Part shown: positions 812 to 46,025 of the stretch, piece by piece
Layout: every line of letters begins with the position of its first letter
Position numbering within the stretch: position 1 is the stretch's first letter
NCBI GenBank assembly: GCA_965262015.1
Contig: OZ253494.1
Location: forward strand, 1,786,720 to 1,850,719
Source of the DNA: Leptospiria bacterium
Lineage (GTDB): Bacteria; Spirochaetota; Leptospiria; Turneriellales; CBDBES01
DNA: 64,000 bases
Direction of reading: 5' to 3'
Translations under genes and position numbers: made by a program
The notes under the pieces: generated by a model
The model's database searches: none
Told to the model about the DNA's origin: nothing
Seen by the model: the letters and a program-made list of their open reading frames with translations, nothing else

Positions 812-841
812 TTGACATTTTATTCATTAAGAAGATATTCT
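812..841 (+). promoter_or_regulatory. sigma-70-like promoter of NHL paralog 1
   Basis: Perfect TTGACA at 812-817, an 18-nt spacer, then TATTCT at 836-841. The same block is conserved at 19600-19629 and 21798-21827. Confidence 0.4.
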
Positions 842-858
842 ATGCCAACGAGAACTTC

Positions 859-2418
859 ATGTCTCAATGCATCATACATTGGTGCAGTAAAGAGAGGTAC
901 CAAAATGATAAACAAGCAACAAGCAACAAGCAACAAGCAACAAGCAACAAGCAACAAGCAACAAGCAACAAGCAACAAGCAACCTATAAGTTTTCCCCTA
1001 AATTTTTAGAACGAATTGTTGATCAAGGTCAACATTCTTTCCATGTATTCAAAAGATACTTCTCGATCGGCGTATTTGCCGTATTGGTGGTAAGCACCGT
1101 CCAATGTGGTGGTGCCTCTGCCGACGCTACTACCCCTTCTGGTGGTGGTTCTGGACAGTTTGATCCTATTTGTACGAATGGTGTTGAATCAACAGAAAAG
1201 GTTTCAACCGCTAACACAGAAAAATGTGTTTCTTGCAATACTGGTTTTGAGAAAAATGGTGAACTTTGCGGAGGGTTTAATTTTATTTGTCCCAAAGGTG
1301 TGCCATTAACAGGTAAAGCTCCTGGGAAGAATATGGTAATGTGTACTTCTTGCGATAGTTATTATGCCTTAAAAAATATTGATAAAACCTGTGCCGAGGT
1401 TCAGGTTATAACGTTGGCGGGTGGTAACAAGGGGGGAGGCATGCCATGTACTCCATCTTCCTCCAGCTGTATGGATGGCATAGGTACTGCAGCACAATTT
1501 AATAATCCTGCTGGAATAGCGGTTGATAGTTCAGACAATATAATATATGTAGTAGATCGTCAGAATCATCGTATCCGAAAAATAACGCTTGCTAGTGGTA
1601 TAGGTACAGTTAGCTCATTCGCAGGTACTGGTACTTCTGGCAGTATGAATGACATGACTGGGATGCCTGGATCAGCACGATTCTGGCAGCCTGAAGGTTT
1701 AGCGGTTGATAGTTCAGGGATTGTATACGTGGCAGGTACAATCAGTAGTCTTATCCGTAAAATAACACCCCCTCCTAGTGCTACGGGCATGGGTACGGTT
1801 ACAACATTTGCAGGTGGCGGGAATCCAGCAGAATTTGTTAATCCTAATGGAGTAGCGGTTGATAGTTTAGGGATTGTATATGTGGCGGATACTGGGAACA
1901 ATCGTATCCGCAAGATAACACTTGATTATAGTGCTACGGGTATGGTTACGGTTACGGTTACAACATTTGCAGGTGGTAACAAGGGTGGAGGCATAGCATG
2001 TACTCCACCTTCCTCCAACTGTATGGATGGCATGGGTACTTCAGCACAATTTAATATTCCTGTTAGTGTAGCAGTTGATGGTTCAGGCAATGTATACGTG
2101 GCAGATCGTGGGAATCATCGTATCCGCAAAATAACGCCTGGTCGTGTGGTTACAACATTTGCAGGTGGCGGGAATCCAGCAGAATTTGATGCTCCTAATG
2201 GAGTAGCGGTTGATAGTAAAGGGTTTGTATACGTAGCAGATACGGGGAACCATCGTATCCGAAAAATAACGCCTGATGGTGTGGTTACGACATTGGCGGG
2301 TGGCAGGAATCCAGTACAATTTCACTTGCCTGAAGATGTAGCGGTTGATAAGTTAGGCAATGTATATGTGGCAGATACACAGAACGATCGTATCCGCAAG
2401 ATAGCCATACCACAATAA
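859..2418 (+). CDS. NHL-repeat six-bladed beta-propeller protein, lipoprotein-like (paralog 1); currently in frame through the heptanucleotide tract
   Basis: 519-aa ORF. The leader (NKQQATS)n-YKFSPKFLERIVDQGQHSFHVFK is followed by a hydrophobic segment ending VQC-GG. Then come Cys4 modules (DPICTNG..TEKCVSCN..GELC) and six blades of consensus GVAVDSxGNVYVADxxNHRIRKIT. C-terminus is IPQ. Confidence 0.85.
   Translation: MSQCIIHWCSKERYQNDKQATSNKQQATSNKQQATSNKQQATYKFSPKFLERIVDQGQHSFHVFKRYFSIGVFAVLVVSTVQCGGASADATTPSGGGSGQFDPICTNGVESTEKVSTANTEKCVSCNTGFEKNGELCGGFNFICPKGVPLTGKAPGKNMVMCTSCDSYYALKNIDKTCAEVQVITLAGGNKGGGMPCTPSSSSCMDGIGTAAQFNNPAGIAVDSSDNIIYVVDRQNHRIRKITLASGIGTVSSFAGTGTSGSMNDMTGMPGSARFWQPEGLAVDSSGIVYVAGTISSLIRKITPPPSATGMGTVTTFAGGGNPAEFVNPNGVAVDSLGIVYVADTGNNRIRKITLDYSATGMVTVTVTTFAGGNKGGGIACTPPSSNCMDGMGTSAQFNIPVSVAVDGSGNVYVADRGNHRIRKITPGRVVTTFAGGGNPAEFDAPNGVAVDSKGFVYVADTGNHRIRKITPDGVVTTLAGGRNPVQFHLPEDVAVDKLGNVYVADTQNDRIRKIAIPQ
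911..983 (+). repeat. heptanucleotide SSR (AACAAGC) x10 plus AAC
   Basis: Counted directly: ten perfect 7-nt units at 911-980, then AAC. Confidence 0.95.
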
Positions 2419-2441: not shown

Positions 2442-2481
2442 CCCATCCCACGTTGGGGTGGGGATTTAGTTTTCTTTTTTT
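2442..2481 (+). terminator. Rho-independent terminator of NHL paralog 1
   Basis: CCCATCCCA-cgt-TGGGGTGGG forms a 9-bp stem with one G:U pair, followed by gatttagttttcttttttt. The same hairpin follows the other NHL genes. Confidence 0.7.
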
Positions 2482-13304: not shown

Positions 13305-16300
13305 ATGATCCGTACTTTAAAACATATACTTCTTGTTTTTCTCACAATATTTTTATTTTTCCCTAGTTGTGGTAATGTAAGGGAATATATAGAGCAAGAG
13401 AGGAGACCTGAATCACCCTCCATTGGCAACCCCAATTTCCTAGAATTTGTAGAAGGATTTGAGGGAACATCCGAGTATAGACTCCTTGAGATTTCTGCTT
13501 TAGCAACTGTCACTATGGCAGGTAATGAAAGATATCTGTATGCGGGTGCCCGTAGCGACAATGCCATTCTAGTGTTTAATATTTCAGATGCACAATTAGA
13601 ACATATCCAAACCATAATGGATGTTGATAGCCCGGCTTACCATTTAGAAGAAGTTAATGAGCTAATTACCTTTCAGGTAAATGAACAACATTATGTCGCT
13701 ACTAGCTCTTTTAAAGAGAGTGGTTTTAATATTTTTAAGGTGGGTATAGACGGCAAGCTCACCATAATTGATTCCAGAGAAGATACAAGAGATATTAACC
13801 TTACATATACCTCATATCTGCATGTGGTAACTCATGGCACGGATACTTTTTTGATCGTGGGCAGTGGTGTACTAGAACATAGTGTCTTGGAAGGCAAGGG
13901 ATTAAGTATTTATAAATTCGAGAACGATGAAGTTACCTTAGAGAGTACAGTTCCCCTTAATAGCAACGAGCTGTTGCCACTTATAGCTGACATTCGTTCA
14001 ATACAAACTCCAAGTGGTCCAGTTATTTTTGTGGGTAGCATGGACAGGCAAGATAACAGCCTATTAACCTCTTACAGAATGGATAGTAGTGGTGCTGTTA
14101 CTACCATGACCCATATCAGCAGTATTCGACATGATGATGTAATATCCGAGGGGTCGGTAGAAACAGATGACTTTGGGTATGGAAGGTCCAATCGGTATGG
14201 TTTTTATGCTATAAGTGCCTTAGAGATATTTAGTGCAAATGAAAATGCTCCTGTTTTTTTGTTGGTTGCGGGTGATCGTATTGGTAGTGTAAGCTTGTTT
14301 GAGGTATCCAGGACGGACGGTAGCCTAAGACACATAGTTAGTATTTTATGGGATTTCGACAATGGTAGACAGGAGTTTGTATCTGGTATATTTAACCTAT
14401 TGCATATTTATTATGCAGATACCAGCTATCTATTGTTTCCTAACAACACATATTCTATGGGTATTTATCGTGCTTCAGCGAGTGGTTTAGACTATGTTAA
14501 CGTAATGTATGCTATGCCAGGTTTACACCTTCGTAATGTTCGAGCTATTGCTTCTGTGCATATTGATGGTAGATACTATGTTTTTACTGCTGGTTCTGAC
14601 CGTGGTATTGGTATGTTCAAGATGAATGGTGAAGATGATGGTGCGACCCTTATTCCCATCTTTGATCCTATCTGTACGAATGGAACCCCCTCAACGGTAA
14701 AGATTTCTACTGACAATACAGAAAAGTGTGTTTCTTGTGATAACTATTATGCCTTAAAACGTGATGAAAGCTGTACTCCAGTTATTGTTGAGACGTTGGC
14801 GGGTACTGGGACTGCAGGTTTTATGGATGGTGCAGGTAATGTAGCACAATTTTATGAGCCTACTGGGGTAGCGGTTGATAGTGTGGGTAATGTATATGTG
14901 GCAGTTAAAAATAGCCATCGTATCCGTAAGATAACGTCTGGTGGTGTGGTTACAACATTGGCGGGTACTGGGACTGCAGGTTTTATGGATGGTGCGGGTA
15001 ATGTAGCACAATTTAATGAGCCTAGAGGAGTAGCGGTTGATGGTTTAGGCAATATATATGTGGCGGATACTGATAACAATCGTATCCGTAAGATAACGCC
15101 TGGTGGTGTGGTTAGCACGTTTGCGGGTACTGGGACTGCAGGGAACATGGATGGTGCGGGTAATGTAGCACAATTTAATAATCCTTATGGAGTAGCGGTT
15201 GATGGTTTAGGCAATATATATGTAGCAGATACTGGTAACCACCATATCCGCAAAATAACGTCTGGTGGTGTGGTTAGCACGTTGGTGGGTACTGCTAGTC
15301 CTGCTGGAGTAGTGGTTGATGTTTCAGGCAATGTATATGTGACAGATAGTAATAACCATCGTATCCGCAAAATAACATTTGATTCTAGTGGTACGGGTAC
15401 GGTTACAACATTGGCGGGTACTGTAACTGCAGGTTTTATGGATGGTGCAGGTAATGTAGCACAATTTAATGAGCCTAGAGGAGTAGCGCTTGATAGTGTG
15501 GGTAATGTATATGTGGCAGATACGAATAACAATCGTATCCGCAAGATAACGCCTAGTGGTGTGGTTAGCACGTTAGCGGGTACTGGAACTCAAGGGGATA
15601 TGGATGGTGTGGGTAATATAGCACAATTTAATGAGCCTAGAGGAGTAGCGGTTGATAGTGTGGGTAATGTATATGTGACAGATACTGATAACCACCGTAT
15701 CCGTCGGCTAATCATAGAATCTCCTACTATTGATCCTATTTGTACGAATGGTACCCCTTCAACAGCAAAGGTTTTCTTTGCTAATACAGAAAAGTGTGTT
15801 TCTTGTGATAGTGGTTTTGATTTAAATGGCGAGATTTGCGGAGGGTTTGATCCTATCTGTACAAATGGAACCCCTTCAACGACAAAGGTTTTTACTGCTA
15901 ATACAGAAAAGTGTGCTTCTTGTAATAATGGTTTTGGTTTGGATGGTGAGCTTTGCAGAGAACAGTTTGATCCTATTTGTACGAATGGTGTTGCTTCGAT
16001 GGTAAAGCTTTTTACCGCTAATACAGGAAAGTGTGCTTCTTGTAATAATTATTACGCCTTAAAACGTGATGAGACCTGTACACCAATTATGGTTGAGACA
16101 TTGGCAGGTACTGGAACTGCAGGATTTATGGATGGTGCAGGTAATGTAGCACAATTTAATGTTCCTGTTGGAATAGCGGTTGATGGTTTAGGCAATGTAT
16201 ATGTGGGGGGGCGGGGTAACGGTCGTATCCGTAAGATAACGTCTGGTGGTGTGGTTAGCACATTTGCGGGTACTGGAACTCAGGGTTTTATGGATGGTGT

Positions 16301-18298: not shown

Positions 18299-19425
18299 AG
18301 CAAGATAATTAGGGTCAGCACAGTTGATGTAAGATATACCACCCCACGACTACTGTCGCTAGGAGTGGTTGTACTTCAGCACATACATTCCTGTGGCCAA
18401 TATTATGGGCAGAAAACCTAAGGTATATATTCTTATCCTGTTAAAGCGGTCATCATCATAGCTCTAAGGGGTAGAAAGGTTCCCTGTGTAATTCATTTCA
18501 TAGCCTGGTTTTGCCAGAAAGTTTAAGTCGATTAAAGAAGCCAACCAAGATAATTAGGGTCAGCACAGTTGATGTAAGAATACCACCCCACAACTACTGT
18601 CGCTAGGGGTTGTTGTACTTCAGCACATACATTCCTGTGGCTAACATCATGGGTAGAAAACCTAAGATATATATTCTTATCCTGTTAAAGTAGTCATCAT
18701 CACAGCTCTAAGGGGTAGAAAGGTTCCCTGTGTAATTCATTTCATAGCCTGGTCTTGCCAGAAAGTTTAAGTCGATTAAAGAAGCCAACCAAGATAATTA
18801 GGGTCAGCACAGTTGATGTAAGAATACCACCCCACAACTACTGTCGCTAGGGGTTGTTGTACTTCAGCCCATACATTCCTGTGGCCAATATTATGGGCAG
18901 AAAACCTAGGATATATCTATCCTGTTAAAGCAGTCATCATCACAGCTCTAAGGCGTAGAAAGGTTCCCTGTGTAATTCATTTCATAGCCTGGTTTTGCCA
19001 GAAAGTTTAAGTCGATTAAAGAAGCCAACCAAGATAATTAGGGTCAGCACAGTTGATGTAAGATATACCACCCCACGACTACTGTCGCTAGGGGTTGTTG
19101 TACTTCAGCACATACATTCCTGTGGCCAATATTATGGGCAGAAAACCTAGGATATATCCTGTTAAAGTAGTCATCATCACAGCTCTAAGGCGTAGAGAGG
19201 TTCCCTGTGTAATTCATTTCATAGCCTGGTTTTGCCAGAAAGTTTAAGTCGATTAAAGAAGCCAACCAAGATAATTAGGGTCAGCACAGTTGATGTAAGA
19301 ATACCACCCCACAACTACTGTCGCTAGGAGTGGTTGTACTTCAGCACATACATCCCTGTGGCCAACATCATGGGTAGAAAACCTAAGGTATATATTCTTA
19401 TCCTGTTAAAGCGGTCATCATCATA
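18299..19425. repeat. tandem array (~4.6 copies, period 238-245 bp) of the 3' end of an RND pump pseudogene
   Basis: Unit starts (caagataattagggtcagcac) are at 18301, 18546, 18790, 19030 and 19268. The reverse strand of each unit reads MMMTALT..LGFLPMMLATG / AEVQQPLATVVVG / GILTSTVLTLIILVGFFNRLKLSGKTRL* across three frames. Confidence 0.85.
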
Positions 19426-19544
19426 ACCCCAATTAAGAGTAGACCTACAACTCCGTCCGCTAGAGAAAACAAAATACCTAGTAAAATTAGAATCGTTTGT
19501 AGCCAATTATAGAAAGCAGAATAGACCTTCCAAATACATAACAT
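19426..19544 (-). pseudogene. RND pump fragment joined to the last tandem unit
   Basis: The reverse strand reads MLCIWKVYSAFYNWLQTILILLGILFSLADGVVGLLLIGV, then runs directly into MMMTALTG* of the array. The ~70 codons present at the other loci are deleted here. Confidence 0.5.
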
Positions 19545-19548
19545 TTTT

Positions 19549-19563
19549 CTGACAGATTGTCAG
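19549..19563. promoter_or_regulatory. perfect palindrome CTGACA-gat-TGTCAG upstream of the NHL-2 promoter (possible operator)
   Basis: Read directly. It is identical at 21747-21761 and degenerate at locus 1 (ctgataatttgttag). Confidence 0.2.
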
Positions 19564-19599: not shown

Positions 19600-19629
19600 T
19601 TGACATTTTATTCATTAAGAAGATATTCT
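19600..19629 (+). promoter_or_regulatory. sigma-70-like promoter of NHL paralog 2
   Basis: TTGACA at 19600-19605 and TATTCT at 19624-19629. The block is identical to locus 1. Confidence 0.4.
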
Positions 19630-19697
19630 ATGCCAACGAGAACTTCATGTCTCAATGCACCATAATTGGTGCAGTAAAGAGAGGTACCAAAATGATA

Positions 19698-19763
19698 AAC
19701 AAGCAACAAGCAACAAGCAACAAGCAACAAGCAACAAGCAACAAGCAACAAGCAACAAGCAAC
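19698..19763 (+). repeat. heptanucleotide SSR (AACAAGC) x9 plus AAC
   Basis: Counted directly: 63 nt at 19698-19760, then AAC. Confidence 0.95.
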
Positions 19764-19863
19764 CTATAAGTTTTTTCCTAAATTTTTAGAACGAATTGTT
19801 GATCAAGGTCAACATTCTTTCCATGTATTCAAAAGATACTTCTCGATCAGCGTATTTGCCGTA

Positions 19864-21072
19864 TTGGTGGTAAGTGCCGTCCAATGTGGAGGTGCCCCCT
19901 CTGCCGACGCTACTACCCCTTCTGATGGTGGGTCTGGACAGTTTGATCCTATTTGTCCCAATGGTGTTGCCTCAACAGAAAAGGTTTCAACCGCTAACAT
20001 AGAAAAATGTGTTTCTTGTAATATTGATTTTGAGAAAAATGGTGAACTTTGCAGACCATTCAATTTTATTTGTCCCAATGGTGTTGAATCAACAGGTAAA
20101 GCTCCTGGGAAGGGTATAGAAAAATGTACTTCTTGCGATAGTTATTATGCCTTTAAAAGTGATAAAACCTGTGCCGTGGTTATGGTTAGCACGTTGGCGG
20201 GTACTGACGCTACGGGGGATTTTAATGAGCCTGGTGGAGTAGCAGTTGATGGTGATGGGGTTGTATATGTGGCAGATACATTAAATCATCGTATCCACAA
20301 GATAACACCTGATCCTATTGATCCTAATGGTACTGGTATGGTTATCACATTGGCGGGTACTGACGCTACGGGGGATTTTAATACTCCTAGAGGAGTAGCG
20401 GTTGATAGTTCAGGCAATGTATATGTGGCAGATGGTAAGAATCATCGTATCCGCAAAATAACATTTGATCCTAGTGGTACGGGTACGGTTATCACGTTGG
20501 CGGGTACTAATGCTATGGGGGATTTTAATCAGCCTGGTGGAGTAGCGGTTGATGGTTCAGGCAATGTATATGTGGCTGATATAGTTAACCATCGTATCCG
20601 CAAAATAACATTTGATCCTAGTGGTACGGGTACGGTTATCACGTTGGCGGGTACTGATGCTATGGGGGATTTTAATCAGCCTTTTGGCGTAGCGGTTGAT
20701 AGTTCAGGAAATGTATACGTGGCTGATACTAGTAACCATCGTATCCACAAAATAACGCCTCCTTCTAGTGGTATGGTTATCACATTGGCGGGTACTGACG
20801 CTATGGGGGATTTTAATACTCCTAGAGGAGTAGCGGTTGATAGTGATGGCAATGTATATGTAGCAGATACATTCAATCATCGTATCCGCAAAATAACGCC
20901 TAGTGGTGTGATTAGCATGTTGGCGGGTACTGGGGCTATAGGGGACATGAATGGTGCGGGTGGTGATGCACAATTTCACTCTCCTAATGGAGTAGCGGTT
21001 GATAGTGATGGCAATGTATATGTAGCAGATACATTAAATCATCGTATCCGCAAAATAACCATACCACAATAA
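19864..21072 (+). CDS. NHL-repeat six-bladed propeller protein (paralog 2); body ORF out of frame with its upstream ATGs (apparent phase-OFF)
   Basis: The ORF-track start (TTG 19864) lies inside the hydrophobic segment. The same frame is open back through the SSR (..QQATYKFFPKFLERIVDQGQHSFHVFKRYFSISVFAVLVV) but contains no start codon. ATG 19647 and ATG 19692 are in another frame and stop at TAA 19767-19769. Six blades; IPQ C-terminus. Confidence 0.75.
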   Translation: MVVSAVQCGGAPSADATTPSDGGSGQFDPICPNGVASTEKVSTANIEKCVSCNIDFEKNGELCRPFNFICPNGVESTGKAPGKGIEKCTSCDSYYAFKSDKTCAVVMVSTLAGTDATGDFNEPGGVAVDGDGVVYVADTLNHRIHKITPDPIDPNGTGMVITLAGTDATGDFNTPRGVAVDSSGNVYVADGKNHRIRKITFDPSGTGTVITLAGTNAMGDFNQPGGVAVDGSGNVYVADIVNHRIRKITFDPSGTGTVITLAGTDAMGDFNQPFGVAVDSSGNVYVADTSNHRIHKITPPSSGMVITLAGTDAMGDFNTPRGVAVDSDGNVYVADTFNHRIRKITPSGVISMLAGTGAIGDMNGAGGDAQFHSPNGVAVDSDGNVYVADTLNHRIRKITIPQ

Positions 21073-21095
21073 TTGTAATCTCGTATCTTATTACA

Positions 21096-21131
21096 CCCAT
21101 CCCACGTTGGGGTGGGGTATTTAGTTTTTTT
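21096..21131 (+). terminator. Rho-independent terminator of NHL paralog 2
   Basis: The CCCATCCCA-cgt-TGGGGTGGG hairpin is followed by gtatttagttttttt. Confidence 0.7.
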
Positions 21132-21269
21132 AGCTGTTTTTTGATTATCACCATGTTTCATATAAAATTAGTTTTTCTAATTTTATATTGCAGTTATAGA
21201 CTTTTTATACGAGGCAATTAATCTCTTACCACTATTTTTTCTATGAAGTCTTGGTAAATTTGAAAGCAT

Positions 21270-21543
21270 AAGTTCCATTTTTAGACAGTTTAAGGCGTTC
21301 ATAAGCCGTTTTTCTTTAAGATACTAAAAATAAAGAGAGCAAGTAATGAAAATTCCTTTTAGCATTGCCAAAAGACAGATCAAGAATGGCTAACCAAGTT
21401 TGCACTGTCCAGAGATGATGCTGACGGTACCAAGATTCCACAGCCAATCACTTAAAAATACTTGATATTTGTACTCTTTAGAGTACGTATCCACGCAATT
21501 CCTCTGTGTTGTGTTGTGGCTGTGTTAAGCCGTTTCTCACGAG
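21270..21543 (+). mobile_element. IS30-derived MITE-like element, full-length copy (~270 bp)
   Basis: It shares its 5' end with 12470-12530 and its 3' part (ggctaaccaagtttgcactgtccagagatgatgctgac..cacttaaaaatacttgatatttgt) with 13085-13175. It abuts the RND fragment. Confidence 0.45.
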
Positions 21544-21742
21544 CCAACCAAGACAATTCTATTTAAAACAGCAACACCATAAAAGACAATACATCCACCT
21601 GATGCTAGAATCCTAAAAGGGTAACCCCAATAAGAAGTAGACCTGCAACTCCGTCTGCTAGAACAAACGGAATACCTAGTAGAATTAGAATCGCTTGTAG
21701 CCAATTATAGAAAGCAGAATAGACTTTCCAAATACATAACAT
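21544..21742 (-). pseudogene. RND efflux transporter C-terminal fragment
   Basis: The reverse strand reads MLCIWKVYSAFYNWLQAILILLGIPFVLADGVAGLLLIGVTLLGF*, then decayed ..AVLNRIVLVG. It is homologous to the fragments at 590-730 and 19426-19544. Confidence 0.5.
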
Positions 21743-21746
21743 TTTT

Positions 21747-21761
21747 CTGACAGATTGTCAG
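21747..21761. promoter_or_regulatory. palindrome CTGACA-gat-TGTCAG upstream of the NHL-3 promoter
   Basis: Identical to 19549-19563. Confidence 0.2.
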
Positions 21762-21797: not shown

Positions 21798-21827
21798 TTG
21801 ACATTTTATTCATTAAGAAGATATTCT
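21798..21827 (+). promoter_or_regulatory. sigma-70-like promoter of NHL paralog 3
   Basis: TTGACA at 21798-21803 and TATTCT at 21822-21827. Confidence 0.4.
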
Positions 21828-21895
21828 ATGCCAACGAGAACTTCATGTCTCAATGCATCATAATTGGTGCAGTAAAGAGAGGTACCAAAATGATA

Positions 21896-22003
21896 AACAA
21901 GCAACAAGCAACAAGCAACAAGCAACAAGCAACAAGCAACAAGCAACAAGCAACAAGCAACAAGCAACAAGCAACAAGCAACAAGCAACAAGCAACAAGC
22001 AAC
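21896..22003 (+). repeat. heptanucleotide SSR (AACAAGC) x15 plus AAC
   Basis: Counted directly: 105 nt at 21896-22000, then AAC. Confidence 0.95.
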
Positions 22004-22103
22004 CTATAAGTTTTTTCCTAAATTTTTAGAACGAATTGTTGATCAAGGTCAACATTCTTTCCATGTATGCAAAAGATACCTCTCGATCAGCGTATTTGCC
22101 GTA

Positions 22104-23507
22104 TTGGTGGTAAGCGTCCAATGTGGTGGTGCCTCTGCCGACGCTACTACCCCTTCTGATGGTGGGTCTGGACAGTTTGATCCTATTTGTCCCAATGGTG
22201 TTGCCTCAACAGAAAAGGTTTCAACCGCTAACACAGAAAAATGTGTTTCTTGTAATAGTGGTTTTGGTTTAGACGGTGAGATTTGTAGAGAACAGTTTGA
22301 TCCTATTTGTCCGGATGGTGTTGCCTCAACAGAAAAGGTTTTAACCGCTAACACAGAAAAATGTGTTTCTTGTAATGGTGGTTTTGAGAAAAATGGTGAA
22401 CTTTGCAGACCATTCAATTTTATTTGTCCCAATGGTGTGCCATTAACAGGTGAAGCTCCTGGGAAGAATATGGTAATGTGTACTTCTTGCGATGACTATT
22501 ATGCCTTAAAACGTGATGAAACCTGTGCCGAGGTTCAGGTTATAACGTTGGCGGGTACTGGGGCTGTAGGGGACATGAATGGTGCGGGTGGTTCAGCAAA
22601 ATTTAATGAGCCTAGTGGTGTAGCAGTTGATAGTGATGGGGTTGTATATGTGGCAGATAGTCATAACCACCGTATCCGCAAGATAACGCCTCCTTCTAAT
22701 GGAATAGGTATGGGTACGGTTAGCACGTTGGCGGGTACTAATGCTATGGGGGATTTTAATGAGCCTAGTGGAGTAGCGGTTGATAGTGATAAAAATGTAT
22801 ACGTGGCGGATCGTCGTAACCATCGTATCCAGAAGATAACGCCTAATCGTGTGGTTACAACGTTGGCGGGTACTGGAATGAAGATAGGGGAAATGGGGGG
22901 GATGGTAAAGGGAGGAGCTTTTAGTGATGACGTTGACACTAACGGGGATAGCATGCTTGATCCTGGTTCAGCACAATTTAGTCAGCCTTATGGAGTAGCG
23001 GTTGATAGTGATAAAAATGTATATGTGGCTGATATAGCTAACCATCGTATCCGGAAGATAACATCTACGGGTGTAGTTAGCACGTTGGCGGGTACTGATG
23101 CTATGGGGGATTTTAATCAGCCTTTTGGCGTAGCGGTTGATAGTTCAGGAAATGTATACGTGGCTGATACTAGTAACGAGCGTATCCGGAAGATAAGCAA
23201 TACTATGGGTATGGGTATGGGTATGGTTAAGACCTTGGCGGGTTCTGGTCTTGCTCTTACTAGAGGAGTAGCGGTTGATGGTGATGACAATGTATATGTG
23301 GTTGATGGTGGCCATCGTATCCACAAGATAACGCCTAGTGGTGTGATTAGCACGTTGGCGGGTACTAGGGCTTCAGGGGACATGAATGGTGCGGGTGGTT
23401 CAGCACAATTTTTCTCTCCTTATGGAGTAGCGGTTGATAGTGATGGCAATGTATATGTAGCAGATACATTCAACCATCGTATCCGCAAAATAACCATACC
23501 ACAATAA
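22104..23507 (+). CDS. NHL-repeat six-bladed propeller protein (paralog 3); body ORF out of frame with its upstream ATGs (apparent phase-OFF)
   Basis: The situation matches paralog 2. ATG 21845 and ATG 21890 read through the SSR into TAA 22007-22009, while the body frame starts at ACC 22002. It has three Cys4 modules, six blades and the IPQ C-terminus. Confidence 0.75.
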   Translation: MVVSVQCGGASADATTPSDGGSGQFDPICPNGVASTEKVSTANTEKCVSCNSGFGLDGEICREQFDPICPDGVASTEKVLTANTEKCVSCNGGFEKNGELCRPFNFICPNGVPLTGEAPGKNMVMCTSCDDYYALKRDETCAEVQVITLAGTGAVGDMNGAGGSAKFNEPSGVAVDSDGVVYVADSHNHRIRKITPPSNGIGMGTVSTLAGTNAMGDFNEPSGVAVDSDKNVYVADRRNHRIQKITPNRVVTTLAGTGMKIGEMGGMVKGGAFSDDVDTNGDSMLDPGSAQFSQPYGVAVDSDKNVYVADIANHRIRKITSTGVVSTLAGTDAMGDFNQPFGVAVDSSGNVYVADTSNERIRKISNTMGMGMGMVKTLAGSGLALTRGVAVDGDDNVYVVDGGHRIHKITPSGVISTLAGTRASGDMNGAGGSAQFFSPYGVAVDSDGNVYVADTFNHRIRKITIPQ

Positions 23508-24255: not shown

Positions 24256-26115
24256 GTGATGCGTTTTTTATTATTACGTTATGCAAGTCTGCCAATTCTC
24301 TTGTGTTTATGTATTATCTTGTCAGCAAATTCAATTACCTTCACAGATAGGCATGAGAAAATAATGAATCTAGGTGATAAAGTAAATTCTACCTATAATG
24401 ACTACCTTCCTTACGTCTCACCTAATGAAAATTTATTATATATGACGTCTGATCGCCCTAGTTATAAAGCCAGCCTACTGCAAGCAGATACACAATATTA
24501 TCAAAGTCGCATATGGAAAATTCCAATGCTTCATAGAGAGGGAAACTTATCCTTTGGTTATCCCACTATTTTTGATAGCAAGATCAATAATAGGATATTT
24601 AATGGTCTTGTATCTGTAAGATATATTTCGGATAGTGACTACCATATTTATTTTACTTCATTGACTAACCATATCTCAGTGAATAGCAATACTGATATTT
24701 TAGTGGCTCATGTGGTAAACAGCGAAGTTGAAACAGTTAAAGTAATTCATGAAATTAGCACAGGATTTAATGAACGCATGCCCTACATCTCTTCAGATGG
24801 CACGGCATTATTTTTTTCTTCTGACCGTCCAGGCGGTTATGGAGAGGATGATATATGGGTCTCTACTTATAACTTTACCCAAAAAACCTGGAATGTTCCT
24901 GCTAATTTGGGACAAAATGTAAATACACCTAATTCAGAGATTTCGCCGTCTATCCACCATAATAATAGTTTATTTTTCTCTTCAAATAAAGAGGGTGGTA
25001 TTGGCGGGTATGATATTTATGTTACGCAAAAAAATAAGCGTATCCCAGATCTATTACATTGGGATCAAGCAAAAAATATCAGTCTACCTTATAATTCACC
25101 ATGGGATGACGAACGGCCCGTTTTTACTCATTCAACACAATATTTTTATTTTTGCTCTAATCGTGCAGGAGGTTATGGTGGTTATGATATCTATAAAGCG
25201 AAAGTGCCTTTAATCATTAAACCCCATAAAACGATTACTTTACAGGGTCGAATTTATGATCACATTTCTCAGGTTGGAATTAAAGCAAATATTCAGGTTC
25301 TTAATTATGATACAGAAATTAATATTTCTAGCATCTTACCTCTAGGGCGCTATTCTGTAAAGCTACGTAATTCAGACAAATACCAAATTATTGTTTCTGC
25401 ACTTGGTTATCAAACACAAGTATATCATCTAGATTTTCAAGATCAAGTAAGTGATATCGATATGATTGAAAAAAATTTTCTCTTAGATACCAAGAACAAT
25501 ATGAAATCTCATAAGATGATGCAAGACAAGATGTCACCCACTCATAAGATGATGCAAGACAAGATGTCACCCACTCATAAGATGATGCAAGACAAGATGT
25601 CACCCACTCATAAGATGATGCAAGATAAGATGTCACCCACTCATAAGATGATGCAAGATAAGATGTCACCCACTCATAAGATGATGCAAGATAAGATGTC
25701 ACCCACTCATAAGATGATGCAAGATAAGATGTCACCCACTCATAAGATGATGATACATGATTCCATGCATTCGGACAGTCAACCTATGGCTATTATCCTC
25801 TTTAAACGTCATATATATAATAAGCTTATCCCAAACGAAGAAGCAAAAATCCGGACTCTATTTACTAGGTGGAAACAAAATCCACAGCACTCATTCCAAT
25901 TAAGGGGACATTCTGCTCGCAAAGAAAAAAAAGATAGAAAGAAAGACCTGTCTAAGAAACGAGCTATGTATGTAAAAGAACGCTTATTATTGTATGACAT
26001 TCCTGAAGAAAGAATTCAGCTCAACTGGTATGCAGATAAGAGGCCTGCCATGGTCGAGAACACAATAAAAAAAAGTGAGCTTAATCAGCGAGTAGAGATA
26101 TTTTTACTAAAGTAA
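24256..26115 (+). CDS. OmpA-family envelope protein with TolB-like (PD40) repeats, a Met/His-rich tandem repeat and a C-terminal OmpA domain
   Basis: 619 aa with a signal peptide. Repeated Y(F)SSDRPGGYG..DIY(W) motifs indicate PD40-type blades. The C-terminus LRGHSA..LSKKRAMYVKERLL..NQRVEIFLL is an OmpA_C-like peptidoglycan-binding motif. Confidence 0.75.
   Translation: MMRFLLLRYASLPILLCLCIILSANSITFTDRHEKIMNLGDKVNSTYNDYLPYVSPNENLLYMTSDRPSYKASLLQADTQYYQSRIWKIPMLHREGNLSFGYPTIFDSKINNRIFNGLVSVRYISDSDYHIYFTSLTNHISVNSNTDILVAHVVNSEVETVKVIHEISTGFNERMPYISSDGTALFFSSDRPGGYGEDDIWVSTYNFTQKTWNVPANLGQNVNTPNSEISPSIHHNNSLFFSSNKEGGIGGYDIYVTQKNKRIPDLLHWDQAKNISLPYNSPWDDERPVFTHSTQYFYFCSNRAGGYGGYDIYKAKVPLIIKPHKTITLQGRIYDHISQVGIKANIQVLNYDTEINISSILPLGRYSVKLRNSDKYQIIVSALGYQTQVYHLDFQDQVSDIDMIEKNFLLDTKNNMKSHKMMQDKMSPTHKMMQDKMSPTHKMMQDKMSPTHKMMQDKMSPTHKMMQDKMSPTHKMMQDKMSPTHKMMQDKMSPTHKMMIHDSMHSDSQPMAIILFKRHIYNKLIPNEEAKIRTLFTRWKQNPQHSFQLRGHSARKEKKDRKKDLSKKRAMYVKERLLLYDIPEERIQLNWYADKRPAMVENTIKKSELNQRVEIFLLK
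25510..25752 (+). repeat. 33-bp tandem repeat, 7 perfect-length copies plus a partial one, encoding (HKMMQDKMSPT)n
   Basis: Counted directly. Copies 1-3 carry GAC-AAG and copies 4-7 carry GAT-AAG (a synonymous C/T difference). The partial eighth copy diverges to HKMMIHDSMHS. Confidence 0.95.
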
Positions 26116-35924: not shown

Positions 35925-36830
35925 ATGCGAGAAAAACTCCAGGGATATTACCTTGCTAGCTTTGGTAGCGTATCCGCCAGTATCTTTTTTATTGCCGTTA
36001 AGGGCAGTCATCATGGACAGCAGTTTTCTGTTGGTTTCTTGTGGTTAATCTATGGATTCGCCTGCTTGATTAGTATGTTATTATTTACACGACCCAAAGA
36101 ATTTTTGGTGACGTGTAATTGGCCTACCATAGTGTTTGGTGTTGCATTTGGCCTATTTTCTATCATGGGTAACTATGCTATTGGGCGAGCACTAGAGTTT
36201 TCTAGCCCAAGTGTCACCGTAATTATATTGCGGGTACAGGTTCTTTTTGTTATATTAATGGGTATTATCTTCTTGGGTGAAAAGTTACGGAAAGAATTAT
36301 GGTTTGGCTGTGCAGTTAGTTGCTTAGGGTTTTTATTATTACGTTGGAATTCATTAAACGATGGCTTGCATTATAAAACAATCTTATGGAGTTTATTTGC
36401 AGCGGGAAATTTTGCCATTGCAAATGTTGCGATAAAAAAATGGATTCTTCTTTTAAATTTGCCTGTTATTAATTTTTTACGATTGTTGGTAGGGGCACTT
36501 ATACTTCCCTTTTTCATTAACGGCTCGATTAATCATTTTATATACCAAGTAGTGGATATGCGTATGGTACTATTGGCCTTTACAGCAGCTTTATGTGGAC
36601 CTAATCTATCTCGATTATCTCAGATGTATGCAATGCAAAAACTCCCCGTATCTCATACTATCCTTTTTACAATGTTAACCCCTATGGTAACAATGTATCT
36701 AGCTTGGTTATTATGGGATACATTACCTTCATATATGATGTTAGCAGGTAGTTCTCTCATCCTAGGTGGGGTGATGCTGTCTACATTAGATATAGGGGCT
36801 TTATATAGGAGAATAAGAAACATCCCGTAG
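35925..36830 (+). CDS. EamA/DMT-family transporter
   Basis: 301 aa with about 10 predicted TM segments in two similar halves. The 3' end overlaps the tRNA-Glu on the opposite strand by about 10 nt. Confidence 0.55.
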   Translation: MREKLQGYYLASFGSVSASIFFIAVKGSHHGQQFSVGFLWLIYGFACLISMLLFTRPKEFLVTCNWPTIVFGVAFGLFSIMGNYAIGRALEFSSPSVTVIILRVQVLFVILMGIIFLGEKLRKELWFGCAVSCLGFLLLRWNSLNDGLHYKTILWSLFAAGNFAIANVAIKKWILLLNLPVINFLRLLVGALILPFFINGSINHFIYQVVDMRMVLLAFTAALCGPNLSRLSQMYAMQKLPVSHTILFTMLTPMVTMYLAWLLWDTLPSYMMLAGSSLILGGVMLSTLDIGALYRRIRNIP

Positions 36831-36892
36831 GGGAGTCGAACCCCTGTTGCAGGAATGAAAATCCTGAGTCCTGACCACTAGACGAACGGGAC
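36821..36892 (-). tRNA. tRNA-Glu (anticodon TTC)
   Basis: Reverse complement: GTCCCGT-TC-GTCT..AGGAC-T-CAGGA-TTTTCAT-TCCTG-..AGGGG-TTCGACT-CCCCT-ACGGGAT-G. The cloverleaf was checked by hand. No encoded CCA. Confidence 0.85.
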
Positions 36893-36897
36893 AAATA

Positions 36898-36970
36898 TAA
36901 GGTGTCCGGGATTCGAACCCGGGGCCCACTGCTTAAAAGGCAGTTGCTCTACCAACTGAGCTAACACCTC
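36898..36970 (-). tRNA. tRNA-Lys (anticodon TTT)
   Basis: Reverse complement: GAGGTGT-TA-GCTC-AGTTGGTA-GAGC-A-ACTGC-CTTTTAA-GCAGT-..CCGGG-TTCGAAT-CCCGG-ACACCTT-A. Confidence 0.85.
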
Positions 36971-37067
36971 AGGTAATAAATTACATAGCACGGTTTGTTT
37001 CAAACTTGTCTATGTCAACCCATTGTTTAATTCTAGAATAAGTAAATTTGGAATAGAGAGTTAGTAC

Positions 37068-37378: not shown

Positions 37379-37906
37379 TTATCGTGGTATAATTATTTTA
37401 CGGATACGATTGTTGTCCGCATCCGCCACATATACATTGTCATTACTATCAACTGCTACTCCTGTAGGATTTTTAAATTGTGCATCTATACTGGTGCCAT
37501 CTTTGCAGGACTCTCCGCCTGTTGCGGGGGTAGTAGTGCCACATTCAGTAGCAGTATTCCCCCCAGCGTTACCACCTGCGAACGTTATAACCTTAACCAC
37601 GGCACAGGTTTCATCACTTTTTTTTAAGACATAATCGCTATGGCAAGAAACACATTTTTCTTTATTCGTAGAAGCTTTTTCTGTTGAGGAAATACCATTG
37701 TTACAGGTATACTGGGGACTGTTGGGGGGGGGGCTTACAGCAGTAGGGGTTCCATCTCTACATTGAATGCTCACCATTAACATAGCAAAGACACTGATCA
37801 ATAAATGTCCTTTGAATACATGGAAAGAATATTGGCATTGGTCAGCGATCTGTTCTAAAAAGGTTGTAATGTATTTATAGATTTGTTGGTTATATGTCAT
37901 TTCCAA
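37379..37906 (-). CDS. short NHL-family protein: leader, one Cys4 module and a single terminal NHL blade
   Basis: 175 aa. MEMTYNQQIYKYITTFLEQIADQCQYSFHVFKGHLLISVFAMLMVSIQC is homologous to the leader of the SSR paralogs but has no heptamer tract. One blade is present (GVAVDSNDNVYVADADNNRIRKIIIPR*). Confidence 0.7.
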   Translation of the reverse strand: MEMTYNQQIYKYITTFLEQIADQCQYSFHVFKGHLLISVFAMLMVSIQCRDGTPTAVSPPPNSPQYTCNNGISSTEKASTNKEKCVSCHSDYVLKKSDETCAVVKVITFAGGNAGGNTATECGTTTPATGGESCKDGTSIDAQFKNPTGVAVDSNDNVYVADADNNRIRKIIIPR

Positions 37907-37958
37907 TGTCTCCTAATGTTTGATTTGTTTAAATCGAATGTTTTACCTCCTCTTAGTT

Positions 37959-38238
37959 CGTGAGAAACGGTTTATCACAGCCACGACGCAACACAGAGGA
38001 ATTGTGTGGATATACACTCTAAAGAGTACAAATGTTAAGTATTTTTGAATGATAAATTGTGAAATCTTGGTGCCGTCAGCATTATCTATGGACAGCGTAA
38101 ACAGGGTTAGCCATTCTTAATCTGTCTTTTGCACCATGGTAAAAAGGAATTTTCATGGGTTGCTCTCTTTATTCTTAGTATTTTCAAGAAAAACGGCTTA
38201 TGAATATCTTAAACTATCCATAGCTGAACTTGACTTGA
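37959..38238 (-). mobile_element. IS30-derived MITE-like element, full-length copy
   Basis: cgtgagaaacggtttatcacagcc...ggacagcgtaaacagggttagccattcttaatctg...aaaacggcttatgaatatcttaaactatcc is the reverse complement of the 21270-21543 element. It has the same orientation as the copy at 37068. Confidence 0.45.
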
Positions 38239-38309
38239 CAAATATACTTATGGAGTACATAAATTAAGTGTTTACAAAGCATGTTTTAGTCAATACTATG
38301 GGGTGTGTA

Positions 38310-38381
38310 CGGGATGTGGCGCAGTGGTAGCGCACCTGTTTTGGGAACAGGGGGTCGCTGGTTCAAATCCAGTCATCCCGA
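38310..38381 (+). tRNA. tRNA-Pro (anticodon TGG)
   Basis: CGGGATG-TG-GCGC-AGTGGTA-GCGC-A-CCTGT-TTTGGGA-ACAGG-..GCTGG-TTCAAAT-CCAGT-CATCCCG-A. Confidence 0.85.
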
Positions 38382-38386
38382 AGTTT

Positions 38387-38460
38387 GCGCCAGTAGCTCA
38401 GTTGGATAGAGCAACGGCCTTCTAAGCCGTGGGCCAGGGGTTCGAATCCTCTCTGGCGTA
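38387..38460 (+). tRNA. tRNA-Arg (anticodon TCT)
   Basis: GCGCCAG-TA-GCTC-AGTTGGATA-GAGC-A-ACGGC-CTTCTAA-GCCGT-..AGGGG-TTCGAAT-CCTCT-CTGGCGT-A. Confidence 0.85.
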
Positions 38461-38484
38461 CTTGTCTTGTAGAGGGGTCTTATA

Positions 38485-43933: not shown

Positions 43934-44006
43934 TACTCCCACCAGGATTCGAACCTGGGCACATGCCTTAGGAGGGCACTGCTCTATCCATCTGAGCTAT
44001 GGGAGC
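43934..44006 (-). tRNA. tRNA-Arg (anticodon CCT)
   Basis: Reverse complement: GCTCCCA-TA-GCTC-AGATGGATA-GAGC-A-GTGCC-CTCCTAA-GGCAT-..CCAGG-TTCGAAT-CCTGG-TGGGAGT-A. Confidence 0.85.
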
Positions 44007-44602: not shown

Positions 44603-44944
44603 GGGGACGCATTGGTTTCGACTAAGATAGTTTAGAACTATGAAAAGCATGCAAAGAGCCATCTTTTAAAAATGGCAACTTAAAATAAATGACAATAGTC
44701 AAGAATTTGCTTTAGCTGCTTAGTGCAGTTAGCGCCGTTTTATCTGTTCGCTTCTAGGTAGGTAAAATGGCTCACATTATAGAAGCTAGGTTTTGTGTGG
44801 CAAAGGCATAAAATCGAAACTATTTTGCTTAGGGTAATGTTGCACTGTCTATGAGACACATTATCTGAAACTTAATCATAGACTAAGCATGTAGAAAGCT
44901 TATTTTGATATTTTAGGACGCGGGTTCAAATCCCGCCGTCTCCA
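44603..44944 (+). ncRNA. ssrA: tmRNA (ssrA)
   Basis: 5' end GGGGACGCATTGGTTTCGAC and 3' tRNA-like end GGACGCGGGTTCAAATCCCGCCGTCTCCA. The internal tag ORF AAT GAC AAT AGT CAA GAA TTT GCT TTA GCT GCT TAG gives tag (A)NDNSQEFALAA. Confidence 0.9.
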
Positions 44945-46025
44945 TGTTTATTTCTTCATCTTGTTGTATTGTACTTATTTGGGTACTTTGTAGTCCAGAC
45001 AGTTGTCCACAGGCAGCATTAATGTCATTACCTCGATTTTTACGTATTGTGGTAAAGATATTATGTTCTATTAAATGGTTAGCAAATTTTGTTATAGTAT
45101 CCAATGAGCTTGTTTCATAAATACTTTTTTGAATTGTATTAAATGGGATGAGGTTGACCTTGGCAGGTTTACGGGATAAAATATGCACTAATTCTTTGGC
45201 ATTCTCTATAGAATCATTAATACCTTTTAGCATTACGTATTCAAAAGTAATACTACGTTTTTTCCAGTTAGACGCATAATCCCAGCATGCTGTCAAAAGA
45301 GTTTCAATGGGATAGCGTTGATTAATCGGTACTAACGTGTTTCGTAATGTATTATTTGGAGCATGTAACGAAATAGCTAGATTAACATCTAATCGTTTAA
45401 GTTTCTGAATTTGAGGTACAATTCCTGACGTACTAACCGTAATTTTTTTTCTTGATAGGTCATATAAGCGGTCATCTAAAAGCATTTCTATTGTAGAAAG
45501 AACGTTATCTAGATTGGCCATGGGCTCTCCCATACCCATAAAAACAATATTTGAAATGGGTTGCAGTTTTTTTGTTAGTACCATTTTTTTTGCATGCCAT
45601 ACCTGTCCAATAATCTCAGAAATAGTTAAATTACGTGTAAAACCTTGTTGTCCAGTGGCACAAAATGGACATTTAAATACGCAACCCACTTGTGAAGAGA
45701 TACAGAGAGTAGCTCGTTTTGTTTCGGGTATATATACTGTTTCAATCAAGTTTTGGTCATCTAACTTAAATAATAACTTATGTGTTTGATCATGAGATAT
45801 GGCTGTATAATTCAGAGGAGGGAAGGCAATGATATTATTCATGTCTAGTTTTTGACGTAAATTCTTTGAAAGATTATGCATATCTTCAAACCGAGTTACT
45901 TGAAAACCATGTATCCATTGCAATATTTGTTCAGCTCGCCATTCAGGTTCTTTCATACTAGATAAAAGTTCACGTAAATCATATTTACTATATGTGGATA
46001 GATTGGCACGCTTCATTATAGTCAT
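44913..46025 (-). CDS. rlmN: 23S rRNA/tRNA (adenine-C2)-methyltransferase RlmN (radical SAM)
   Basis: 370 aa. Motifs: CISSQVGCVFKCPFCATG (CxxxCxxC), NIVFMGMGEP, and C-terminal ..INAACGQL. The last about 10 codons read antisense through the tmRNA 3' end. Confidence 0.85.
   Translation of the reverse strand: MTIMKRANLSTYSKYDLRELLSSMKEPEWRAEQILQWIHGFQVTRFEDMHNLSKNLRQKLDMNNIIAFPPLNYTAISHDQTHKLLFKLDDQNLIETVYIPETKRATLCISSQVGCVFKCPFCATGQQGFTRNLTISEIIGQVWHAKKMVLTKKLQPISNIVFMGMGEPMANLDNVLSTIEMLLDDRLYDLSRKKITVSTSGIVPQIQKLKRLDVNLAISLHAPNNTLRNTLVPINQRYPIETLLTACWDYASNWKKRSITFEYVMLKGINDSIENAKELVHILSRKPAKVNLIPFNTIQKSIYETSSLDTITKFANHLIEHNIFTTIRKNRGNDINAACGQLSGLQSTQISTIQQDEEINMETAGFEPAS

Follow-up and report, generated by a model that had tools for sequence, protein, structure and literature searches.

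The 64-kb window analysed here (positions 1,786,720 to 1,850,719 of contig OZ253494.1 from a bacterium of the Leptospiria, assembly GCA_965262015.1; coordinates below are counted from its first base) contains three paralogous genes of NHL-repeat proteins, referred to as loci 1, 2, and 3, each of which carries a perfect tract of the heptanucleotide AACAAGC near the 5' end. We propose that this tract is probably the slippage-prone element of a translational phase-variation switch, that is, of a contingency locus. Read directly from the sequence are the tracts and their frames, the homology of the start codons, the intact gene bodies, and the differences in tract length among the paralogs. In the proposed layout each locus would be monocistronic, with a promoter-like block, a short 5' region containing ATG codons devoid of a Shine-Dalgarno (SD) sequence, a strong SD sequence with its ATG, two codons, and (AACAAGC)n; behind the tract there would follow a conserved leader of 24 aa and a hydrophobic signal segment with Cys as its last residue, and the remainder would consist of Cys-rich modules and an NHL beta-propeller.

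Heptanucleotide tracts in the window

Locus 1 contains ten perfect units at 911-980 followed by a partial AAC up to position 983. These ten units, reported in the initial annotation of this DNA, were recovered both by a regular-expression search and by Tandem Repeats Finder, which delimits the tract at 911-983 (period 7, 10.4 copies, 100% matches, score 146). There are nine perfect units at locus 2 (19698-19760) and fifteen at locus 3 (21896-22000). Across the whole 64 kb, the three AACAAGC tracts are the only simple repeats with a unit of 2-9 nt and at least four copies; they are confined to one gene family and are placed alike in all three paralogs, and their chance origin is excluded. The unit of 7 nt is not a multiple of three, and the tracts are long and perfect at all three loci.

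The number of units (10, 9, and 15) varies against flanks that are about 95-99% identical, as seen in a comparison among paralogs only. On the 3' side, the 100 nt adjoining the tracts are 95-98% identical between loci. On the 5' side, the respective 100 nt of loci 2 and 3 are 99% identical, and locus 1 differs there by a 1-nt indel and one T/C change shared with locus 3. Near-identical flanks, unequal unit numbers, and uninterrupted tracts together indicate ongoing slippage. Relatives sharing the leader of these proteins were collected by an exhaustive profile search of 1.84 billion representative proteins, and two of them imply further tract lengths, about 7-8 units in P0259 and 10 units in P0258. 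A literature search with the heptamer string matched only primer sequences.

Coding nature of the tract and its start codon

The region upstream of the locus 1 tract contains a candidate sigma-70-like promoter on the plus strand (812..841), in which TTGACA is separated by a 16-nt spacer from GATATT or by an 18-nt spacer from TATTCT. This candidate matches 10 of 12 positions and is the best one in 600-2700, although promoter-like matches as a class are not enriched in the region (9 found versus 7.0 +/- 2.4 in shuffles). Identical hexamers are found at loci 2 (from 19600) and 3 (from 21798), in line with the conservation of the TTGACA/TATTCT block described previously. Of the upstream ATG codons at locus 1, those at 859 and 905 had been listed in the initial annotation, together with the sequence AAGAGAGGT preceding the latter, and all are present; two more, at 842 and 867, had been overlooked. 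ATG 842 (842..844) overlaps the -10 hexamer, shares the frame of ATG 905 in locus 1, and probably lies upstream of the transcription start. The SD sequence AAGAGAGGT (890..898), with GAGGT inside it, is located 6 nt upstream of ATG 905 (905..907), and this SD-led ATG stands 6 nt 5' of the repeat. The predicted duplex with the anti-SD sequence has an energy of -9.2 kcal/mol, near the first percentile (-9.5) of 1000 random 20-mers of the window.

The tract itself is best read as coding, as the initial annotation had held. All three of its frames translate to cyclic permutations of NKQQATS, and the repeat contains no stop codon in any of the six frames. An antisense ORF (open reading frame) at 820..978 was rejected, since it owes its openness solely to the lack of stops on either strand of the repeat. 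In the body frame of locus 1 the available starts are ATG 859 and then TTG 1084 and GTG 1087, both inside the hydrophobic segment; a scan confirmed that no ATG, GTG, or TTG occurs in this frame between the tract and that segment. The translated leader YKFSPKFLERIVDQGQHSFHVFKR (985..1056, plus strand) is conserved in paralogs with and without the tract, and in all three genes the tract is followed by the pattern YKF.PKFLERIVDQGQHSFHV.KRY. The homologous leader MTYNQQIYKYITTFLEQIADQCQYSFHVFK is indeed translated, as earlier proposed, in the tract-less paralog P0121 (173 aa; 37379..37900, minus strand). Between this paralog and the leader, differences at the three codon positions number 10/7/18 with seven synonymous codon changes, and the other two frames of the leader carry stops.

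The tract-less paralog also locates the start. Since there is a stop five codons upstream and its own AGGAGA lies 8 nt before the ATG, this protein must begin at MTYNQQIYKY, and in the DNA alignment its ATG falls at the position of the tract. When locus 1 is cut to two units, ATG 905 yields MINKQQATYKFSPKF, which is collinear residue for residue up to the Cys with the paralog sequence MTYNQQIYKYITTF. Several tract-less relatives have a Met aligned to ATG 905, namely P0256 (...KRGTK-MLNKQI), P0255 (MK-MLKQTT), P0268 (...GVE-MLNKQK), and P0267 (MTYKQK); the pattern of tract-less relatives from this Met onwards is M-[ILT]-x-[NK]-Q. The tract-bearing relative P0259 starts exactly at the equivalent of ATG 905 and has the repeat in frame (MLNKQQATSNKQQATSNKQQFYRSFPKFL). 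Because the SD signal, the tract-less paralog, the coding pattern of the leader, and the library relatives agree, we take ATG 905 to be, with good probability, the native and homologous start of the family.

The same observations bear on a role of the tract at the level of the transcript, either like the repeats of hmw1A and hmw2A or as an element of the 5' untranslated region, with translation from a downstream non-canonical start and with graded tuning by tract length. A predicted pairing of GAGAACUU (850-857) with AAGUUUUC (988-995) brackets the tract (fold z = -2.2), and heptamer repeats of Haemophilus do act in promoters. However, the SD-led ATG lies immediately 5' of the tract, no ATG, GTG, or TTG follows before the signal segment, the substitution pattern of the leader is that of coding sequence, the tract-less paralog is forced to the homologous ATG by its upstream stop, and no Rfam family matches the region. 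The tract sits downstream of an SD sequence and its ATG, and it aligns collinearly with the part of tract-less homologs that codes for their N-terminus, a placement other than that of the hmw promoter repeats. A downstream non-canonical start was considered and rejected, as was a role of the tract as promoter spacer. We regard an action at the transcript level as very improbable.

A different possibility is that ATG 859, on which the initial annotation had placed its emphasis, is the operative start of locus 1, in which case ten units would be the fully ON state and a 1-nt insertion would have re-phased locus 1 relative to loci 2 and 3. ATG 859 (859..861) opens a 519-aa ORF (859..2418), whose reading begins MSQCIIHWCSKERYQND, and is used as the start in the public annotation (P0252). 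The example of licA demonstrates that upstream ATG codons in the second frame can function, and the relative P0258 begins at the analogous second-frame ATG. On the other hand, ATG 859 has no SD sequence (-3.0 kcal/mol versus a background mean of -2.3, compared with -9.2 at ATG 905), is separated by a mere 10-13 nt or so from the transcription start that the -10 hexamer predicts, and has no counterpart start in tract-less homologs. The open run of 17 codons in the matching frame would be expected by chance in approximately one case in ten, by our estimate. Finally, the interval from 859 to 905 looks like an untranslated hairpin, with an indel in the loop and a U.G to C-G change in the stem, as described below. 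The SD energies and the tract-less homologs favour ATG 905, and we consider ATG 859 unlikely to be the operative start.

Between ATG 859 and the SD sequence lies an inverted repeat, TGCATCA-N5-TGGTGCA (868..886, 7 bp), predicted to form a hairpin. It has counterparts at locus 2 (19656-19673, perfect) and locus 3 (21854-21871), with the common form TGCA(T/C)CA-N4/5-TGGTGCA, and is predicted to fold at all three loci (z-scores of -1.6 to -3.1); in the predicted outer stem, AUGUCUC of ATG 859 pairs with GAGAGGU of the SD sequence. The loci differ in this interval at two positions only: an extra C in the loop of locus 1 (877), and a U to C change by which locus 2 has C-G in place of a U.G pair. 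Such a pattern, with just two changes, weakly suggests an untranslated structured leader, not a coding segment. The inverted repeat could be an SD-masking RNA hairpin or an operator for a dimeric regulator.

Phase rule and present state of the loci

We simulated each locus with 6-17 units and read it from every upstream start. As the earlier reading had anticipated, each unit gained or lost shifts the frame, since 7 is not divisible by three. When n = 2 mod 3, the body is in frame with the SD-led ATG (905, 19692, and 21890 at loci 1, 2, and 3, respectively) and with the first upstream ATG (842, 19647, and 21845); at locus 1, ATG 905 is in the body frame only in this class. When n = 1 mod 3, a single SD-less ATG is in frame, namely 859 at locus 1, 19655 at locus 2, and 21853 at locus 3, the last two with the reading MHHNWCSKERYQND. 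When n = 0 mod 3, no start is in frame at any locus. Hence starts open to the tract are found in exactly two of the three frames at every locus. The 10-unit relative P0258 begins exactly at the second-frame ATG of MHHNWCSKERYQND.

At its present ten units (n = 1 mod 3), locus 1 is in the second-frame state. The ORFs bear out the earlier statement that ATG 859 is in frame with the body and that ATG 905 is not: the latter gives a 34-aa peptide closed by TAG at 1007..1009, which also terminates the frame of ATG 842 (ORF 812..1009). Locus 2 (19600..21072, plus strand; ATGs at 19647, 19655, and 19692; body open to 21072) with nine units and locus 3 (21798..23507, plus strand; ATGs at 21845, 21853, and 21890; body open to 23507) with fifteen are both null, that is, out of frame with every available start. 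This state of loci 2 and 3 and their second-frame ATGs 19655 and 21853 had escaped the initial annotation. Every locus is one unit away from the fully ON state (+1 for locus 1, -1 for locus 2, and -1 for locus 3).

The initial annotation had ascribed the frame of ATG 859 to a 1-nt difference between locus 1 (cataCattgg) and loci 2 and 3 (cataattgg). The difference, an extra C at 877, is real, but its effect is not unique, as ATGs 19655 and 21853 serve the same class of n = 1 mod 3; the indel alters only which upstream ATG serves the second frame and confers no special property on locus 1. The version with the extra C is probably ancestral, because the tract-less P0256 reads NVSYIGVVKRGTKM in the frame of the locus 1 reading from ATG 842.

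Either the unit counts or this extra C might be wrong, since assembly is difficult when three near-identical paralogs each contain a repeat of 63-105 bp. Such an artefact of assembly or sequencing seems to us extremely unlikely: the tract is present at three loci and is mirrored in the independent database proteins P0252, P0258, and P0259, the extra C lies outside any homopolymer and its reading frame is common to the divergent P0256, and the housekeeping ORFs of the window are intact.

In the proposed switch, slipped-strand mispairing would add or remove units and so move the start codon to another frame, and the ribosome would read through the tract in every phase, because the heptamer contains no stop in any frame. 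With n = 2 mod 3 (2, 5, 8, 11, 14, or 17 units), the SD-led ATG would be in frame and the gene fully ON, producing M-I-(NKQQATS)n/3 joined to the leader; the repeat peptide would be removed together with the signal peptide. As a consequence of this presumed processing, tract length should affect only the ON/OFF state. With n = 1 mod 3, only the SD-less upstream ATG would be available, possibly with weak expression, and with n = 0 mod 3 the gene would be OFF. The unequal tract lengths suggest that the paralogs switch independently, and a population would therefore show varying combinations of these putative surface lipoproteins. Slippage in vivo, the start actually used, lipoprotein processing, surface exposure, and adaptive value are what we infer in this model.

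Switching versus gene decay

An alternative to be weighed against a reversible switch is that the genome is shrinking and the three genes are duplicates undergoing decay; the heptamer would then be a mutational hot spot that has inactivated them, with no reversible or adaptive switching. Several observations count against our proposal, and some of them are what decay would predict. All three loci of the window are OFF from the SD-led start, as is expected of decaying genes. The ratio of nonsynonymous to synonymous substitution rates (dN/dS) in the bodies, 0.72-0.96, fits diversifying and relaxed selection alike. The genome is small, a single contig of 1,922,353 bp (1.92 Mb), and pseudogene fragments and tandem debris adjoin the genes, including pieces of an RND pump and 244-bp repeats. 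Each of the ten window proteins looked up is a singleton at 90% identity, with no second strain among the available sequences, and two metagenome scans with ATG-plus-tract patterns yielded no homologous locus, the few matches being short (2-3 units) and due to chance. With approximately 50-60 residues, the signal peptide would have an n-region of unusual length, and the residue before the Cys is Gln, which is disallowed in the canonical PROSITE lipobox. Moreover, several of the relatives cited (P0255-P0260) are assigned to this genome with a degree of probability only (see below).

Nevertheless, the bodies of 435-500 codons contain no stop and no frameshift, despite 150-229 nucleotide differences between pairs (synonymous divergence, dS, of 0.15-0.30). 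With about 3% of random substitutions creating a stop, we estimate analytically that the probability of no stop under random substitution is approximately 5e-4 to 1.5e-2 per pair. The repeat is the only lesion, and the frameshift is confined to the tract. Gene conversion among the paralogs could help to keep the frames open. In addition, the tracts are perfectly pure, whereas dead repeats gather interruptions, each locus is exactly one unit from the ON state, and a relative with an in-frame tract exists (P0259). It is not remarkable that none of the three loci is in the SD-led frame, an outcome with a probability of (2/3)^3 = 0.3 if phases are random, and switches of this kind normally have about two thirds of their copies OFF, as in neuO with 65.6% OFF. 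Weighing both sides, we hold decay of the duplicates to be distinctly unlikely.

Protein products and related proteins

The hydrophobic segment with a conserved Cys, YFSIGVFAVLVVSTVQC (1057..1107, plus strand), is the only stretch with a mean hydropathy above 1.8. It ends with V-Q-C in the three tract-bearing genes, and the endings FQC, LQC, and IQC recur in relatives. The segment resembles the hydrophobic h-region of a signal peptide with a spirochaete-style x-Q-C lipobox-like end, which makes the product a putative lipoprotein. The predicted mature protein of locus 1 (1108..2418, plus strand) consists of two Cys-rich modules of about 39 aa followed by an NHL beta-propeller (Pfam PF01436, E = 3.6e-49, five stretches). 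The three tract-bearing genes encode five or six NHL repeats (E = 3.6e-49 to 8.3e-57), preceded in each case by one or more Cys-rich modules (~39 aa, FDPICxNG...C.SC). An intrinsic-terminator-like hairpin (2442..2462, plus strand) follows the locus 1 gene.

In the public annotation, locus 1 starts at ATG 859 (P0252, 519 aa) and locus 3 at GTG 22107, inside the signal peptide (P0253, 466 aa); none of the locus 2 product variants tried was found in the public protein collection. The switch family is thus invisible in the annotation, because the start of locus 3 is miscalled inside the signal peptide and that of locus 1 is placed at a doubtful ATG.

The same genome most likely also encodes the proteins P0255-P0260, P0267, and P0268, as additional paralogs. 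We draw this from the lack of a close relative genome in the collection and from the location of P0001, P0121, and P0122 on the same contig. In terms of phase, P0259 is ON, locus 1 and P0258 are in the second frame, and loci 2 and 3 are null; P0260 and P0122 are probably OFF, because both begin inside the signal segment, like locus 3. If the relatives belong to the same genome, it perhaps contains five to seven tract-bearing loci in mixed phases.

The second tract-less member of the family in the window is a 1630-aa protein with an ordinary lipoprotein signal (MIRTLKHILLVFLTIFLFFPSC). In the tract-less paralog P0121, a run of ten C on the coding strand (G10 on the plus strand, 37724-37733) is located just after the conserved Cys (SIQCRDGTPTAVSPPPNS) and is the only G/C homopolymer of at least 9 nt in the 64 kb. 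It may be a second type of repeat switch in the NHL family, because the gain or loss of a single base would put the gene out of frame. In the related protein P0267 (61 aa), an SSPPPQ stretch is immediately followed by the C-terminus.

The Cys-rich module was observed at 1153-1290, from 14661, at 15846-16049, and at 22170-22438. It has the consensus [FY]DPICxNG..ST.K..T.NTEKC.SC...[FY]...GE.C and no match in Pfam. In the library of 1.84 billion proteins it recurs directly after the lipoprotein signal peptides of many distant proteins, and it may represent an undescribed domain family.

The same heptamer in other genomes

Tracts of at least three AACAAGC units were detected in at least 118 species-representative genomes; none of the matches listed for this (AACAAGC)3 scan (at least 118 loci) is homologous to the loci described here. 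At least 18 of these tracts precede a long ORF and begin no more than 45 nt downstream of an ATG. In Leuconostoc koreense (CP042404), 36 units follow in frame the ATG of a Dam-like methyltransferase gene. The heptamer also follows the ATG of lipoprotein genes in a rumen metagenome-assembled genome (MAG) of the Spirochaetaceae and in MAGs of the Bacteroidales and Chitinophagales, of a prepilin gene in a Melainabacteria MAG, and of a family-2 glycosyltransferase gene in a Fretibacterium MAG (loci L046, L086, L091, L022, L081, L089, L073, and L030 of our scan). Genes for methyltransferases, lipoproteins, prepilins, and glycosyltransferases are classic contingency-gene classes. If this heptamer is favoured, a possible reason is that neither strand contains a stop and that the polar peptide it encodes is innocuous. 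Its recurrence near the 5' ends of coding sequences in unrelated phyla suggests that a general rule may govern which sequences are usable as coding switches.

As a tentative extension, which we think rather doubtful at present, the genome may hold a sizeable family of NHL lipoproteins (five to seven tract-bearing members and more without a tract) under a three-state switch (strong ON from the SD-led ATG, weak ON from an SD-less second-frame ATG, and null), with (AACAAGC)n being convergently favoured across phyla. If so, surface variation would be both graded and combinatorial in this deep-branching, spirochaete-like lineage of reduced genome size; we know of no such switch system in that lineage. 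Even in its narrower form, our proposal, if true, would provide a clear example of a spirochaete-like lineage in which a lipoprotein family undergoes translational phase variation through simple repeats. An organism with a small genome would then depend on stochastic variation of its surface, a hint that it may live in association with a host or be exposed to predators.

Genomic neighbourhood

Upstream of locus 2, a 244-bp tandem repeat is present in 4.6 copies with 93% matches (18301-19423), and a conserved block of about 250 bp is located upstream of every NHL locus (440-760, 19400-19560, 21080-21760, and 37906-38310). The opposite strand of both elements encodes stop-riddled C-terminal membrane segments of an RND (AcrB/CzcA-like) pump (EVQQPLATVVVGW, LPFSIPALAGFIAFSGVAILNG). 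It seems that duplication of the NHL cassettes also copied this pump pseudogene debris.

A 33-bp tandem repeat (25508-25752, 7.4 copies, 99% matches) is located inside an ORF with PD40 and OmpA-family domains (24256..26115). Its period is a multiple of three, and it therefore encodes an in-frame 11-residue repeat whose length could change while the gene stays on. Another protein of the neighbourhood contains a weak OmpL47-type domain. Also encoded in the window are a tmRNA with the tag peptide DNSQEFALAA and five tRNAs (44603-44947; 36820-36971; 38310-38461; 43934-44006). The tRNA-Arg(cct) gene overlaps the 5' end of the longest ORF of release factor 1 (RF1), so that this protein probably starts at a later Met. 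Among named sequences, RF1 is most similar to proteins of Spirochaetia and Leptospirales MAGs (55-57% identity).

Comparison with known phase-variable systems

The initial annotation had cited pentamer repeats of Neisseria opa, tetramers of Haemophilus, and the 7-bp hmw repeats as precedents. The architecture described here does fit the class of translational switches, but the hmw repeats are promoter elements, and the appropriate heptamer match is neuO, the O-acetyltransferase gene of the CUS-3 prophage in Escherichia coli K1. This gene has an (AAGACTC)n tract in its 5' coding region and yields the full-length product in one of three length classes (PMC13001214). The number of repeats ranges from 3 to 53 among genomes, 65.6% of which are OFF, and single colonies contain n, n-1, and n+1 repeats in proportions of 93%, 2%, and 5%, respectively (PMC13001214). 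Common to both systems are a 7-nt unit in the 5' coding region, a period-3 rule, and a polar heptad peptide readable in all frames. The unit here is AACAAGC instead of AAGACTC, and Pfam assigns the products only to NHL and propeller families, without homology to the NeuO acetyltransferase. A gene family is involved rather than a single gene, and there is no sign of phage-borne genes, in contrast to the prophage location of neuO. NeuO retains its repeat peptide, which affects activity, whereas here the peptide lies upstream of the signal peptide and would be cleaved off. Finally, neuO is ON at n = 0 mod 3, and the loci described here would be ON at n = 2 mod 3.

In the Neisseria opa family, CTCTT repeats are located in the coding sequence of the leader peptide at about 11 loci, which switch at approximately 1e-3 per generation, and each copy has its own tract length, resulting in combinatorial expression (PMC3745409). 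The NHL genes similarly have the repeat in the signal/leader coding region of a multi-copy family of (here putative) surface proteins, with an individual length in each copy. They differ from opa in the unit, a heptamer AACAAGC versus the pentamer CTCTT, in the encoded peptide, which forms the hydrophobic core in opa but would be a polar N-terminal extension before the core here, and in the product, which is a beta-barrel in the case of Opa and an NHL putative lipoprotein in our case.

The licA gene (lic1) of Haemophilus influenzae, with its (CAAT)n tract, can be initiated at three codons, alpha and beta plus gamma, which are distributed over two of the three frames (PMC2212159). As in licA, starts upstream of the tract occupy two of three frames at every locus of the window. 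The licA unit is a tetramer and its product a cytoplasmic choline kinase; use of the second-frame start has been demonstrated there, whereas here it would be a possibility predicted from the sequence. The 7-bp repeats of Haemophilus hmw1A and hmw2A, which share the unit length and control a surface adhesin, are located in promoters approximately 100 bp upstream of the genes and modulate expression (PMC2651432). Being promoter elements and not a frame switch, they work by a different mechanism and are a poor precedent.

In the literature retrieved, phase variation in spirochaetes is represented by promoter poly-G tracts of Treponema pallidum. These tracts are associated with putative outer-surface proteins (tprE/G/J, tprL, and TP0126) and show length heterogeneity within isolates (PMC7864442). 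Unlike the AACAAGC tracts, they consist of a single nucleotide, lie in promoters, and exert their effect on transcription. The nearer analogue of the Treponema tracts in the window is the run of ten C in the tract-less paralog (37724-37733), though it is located within coding sequence.

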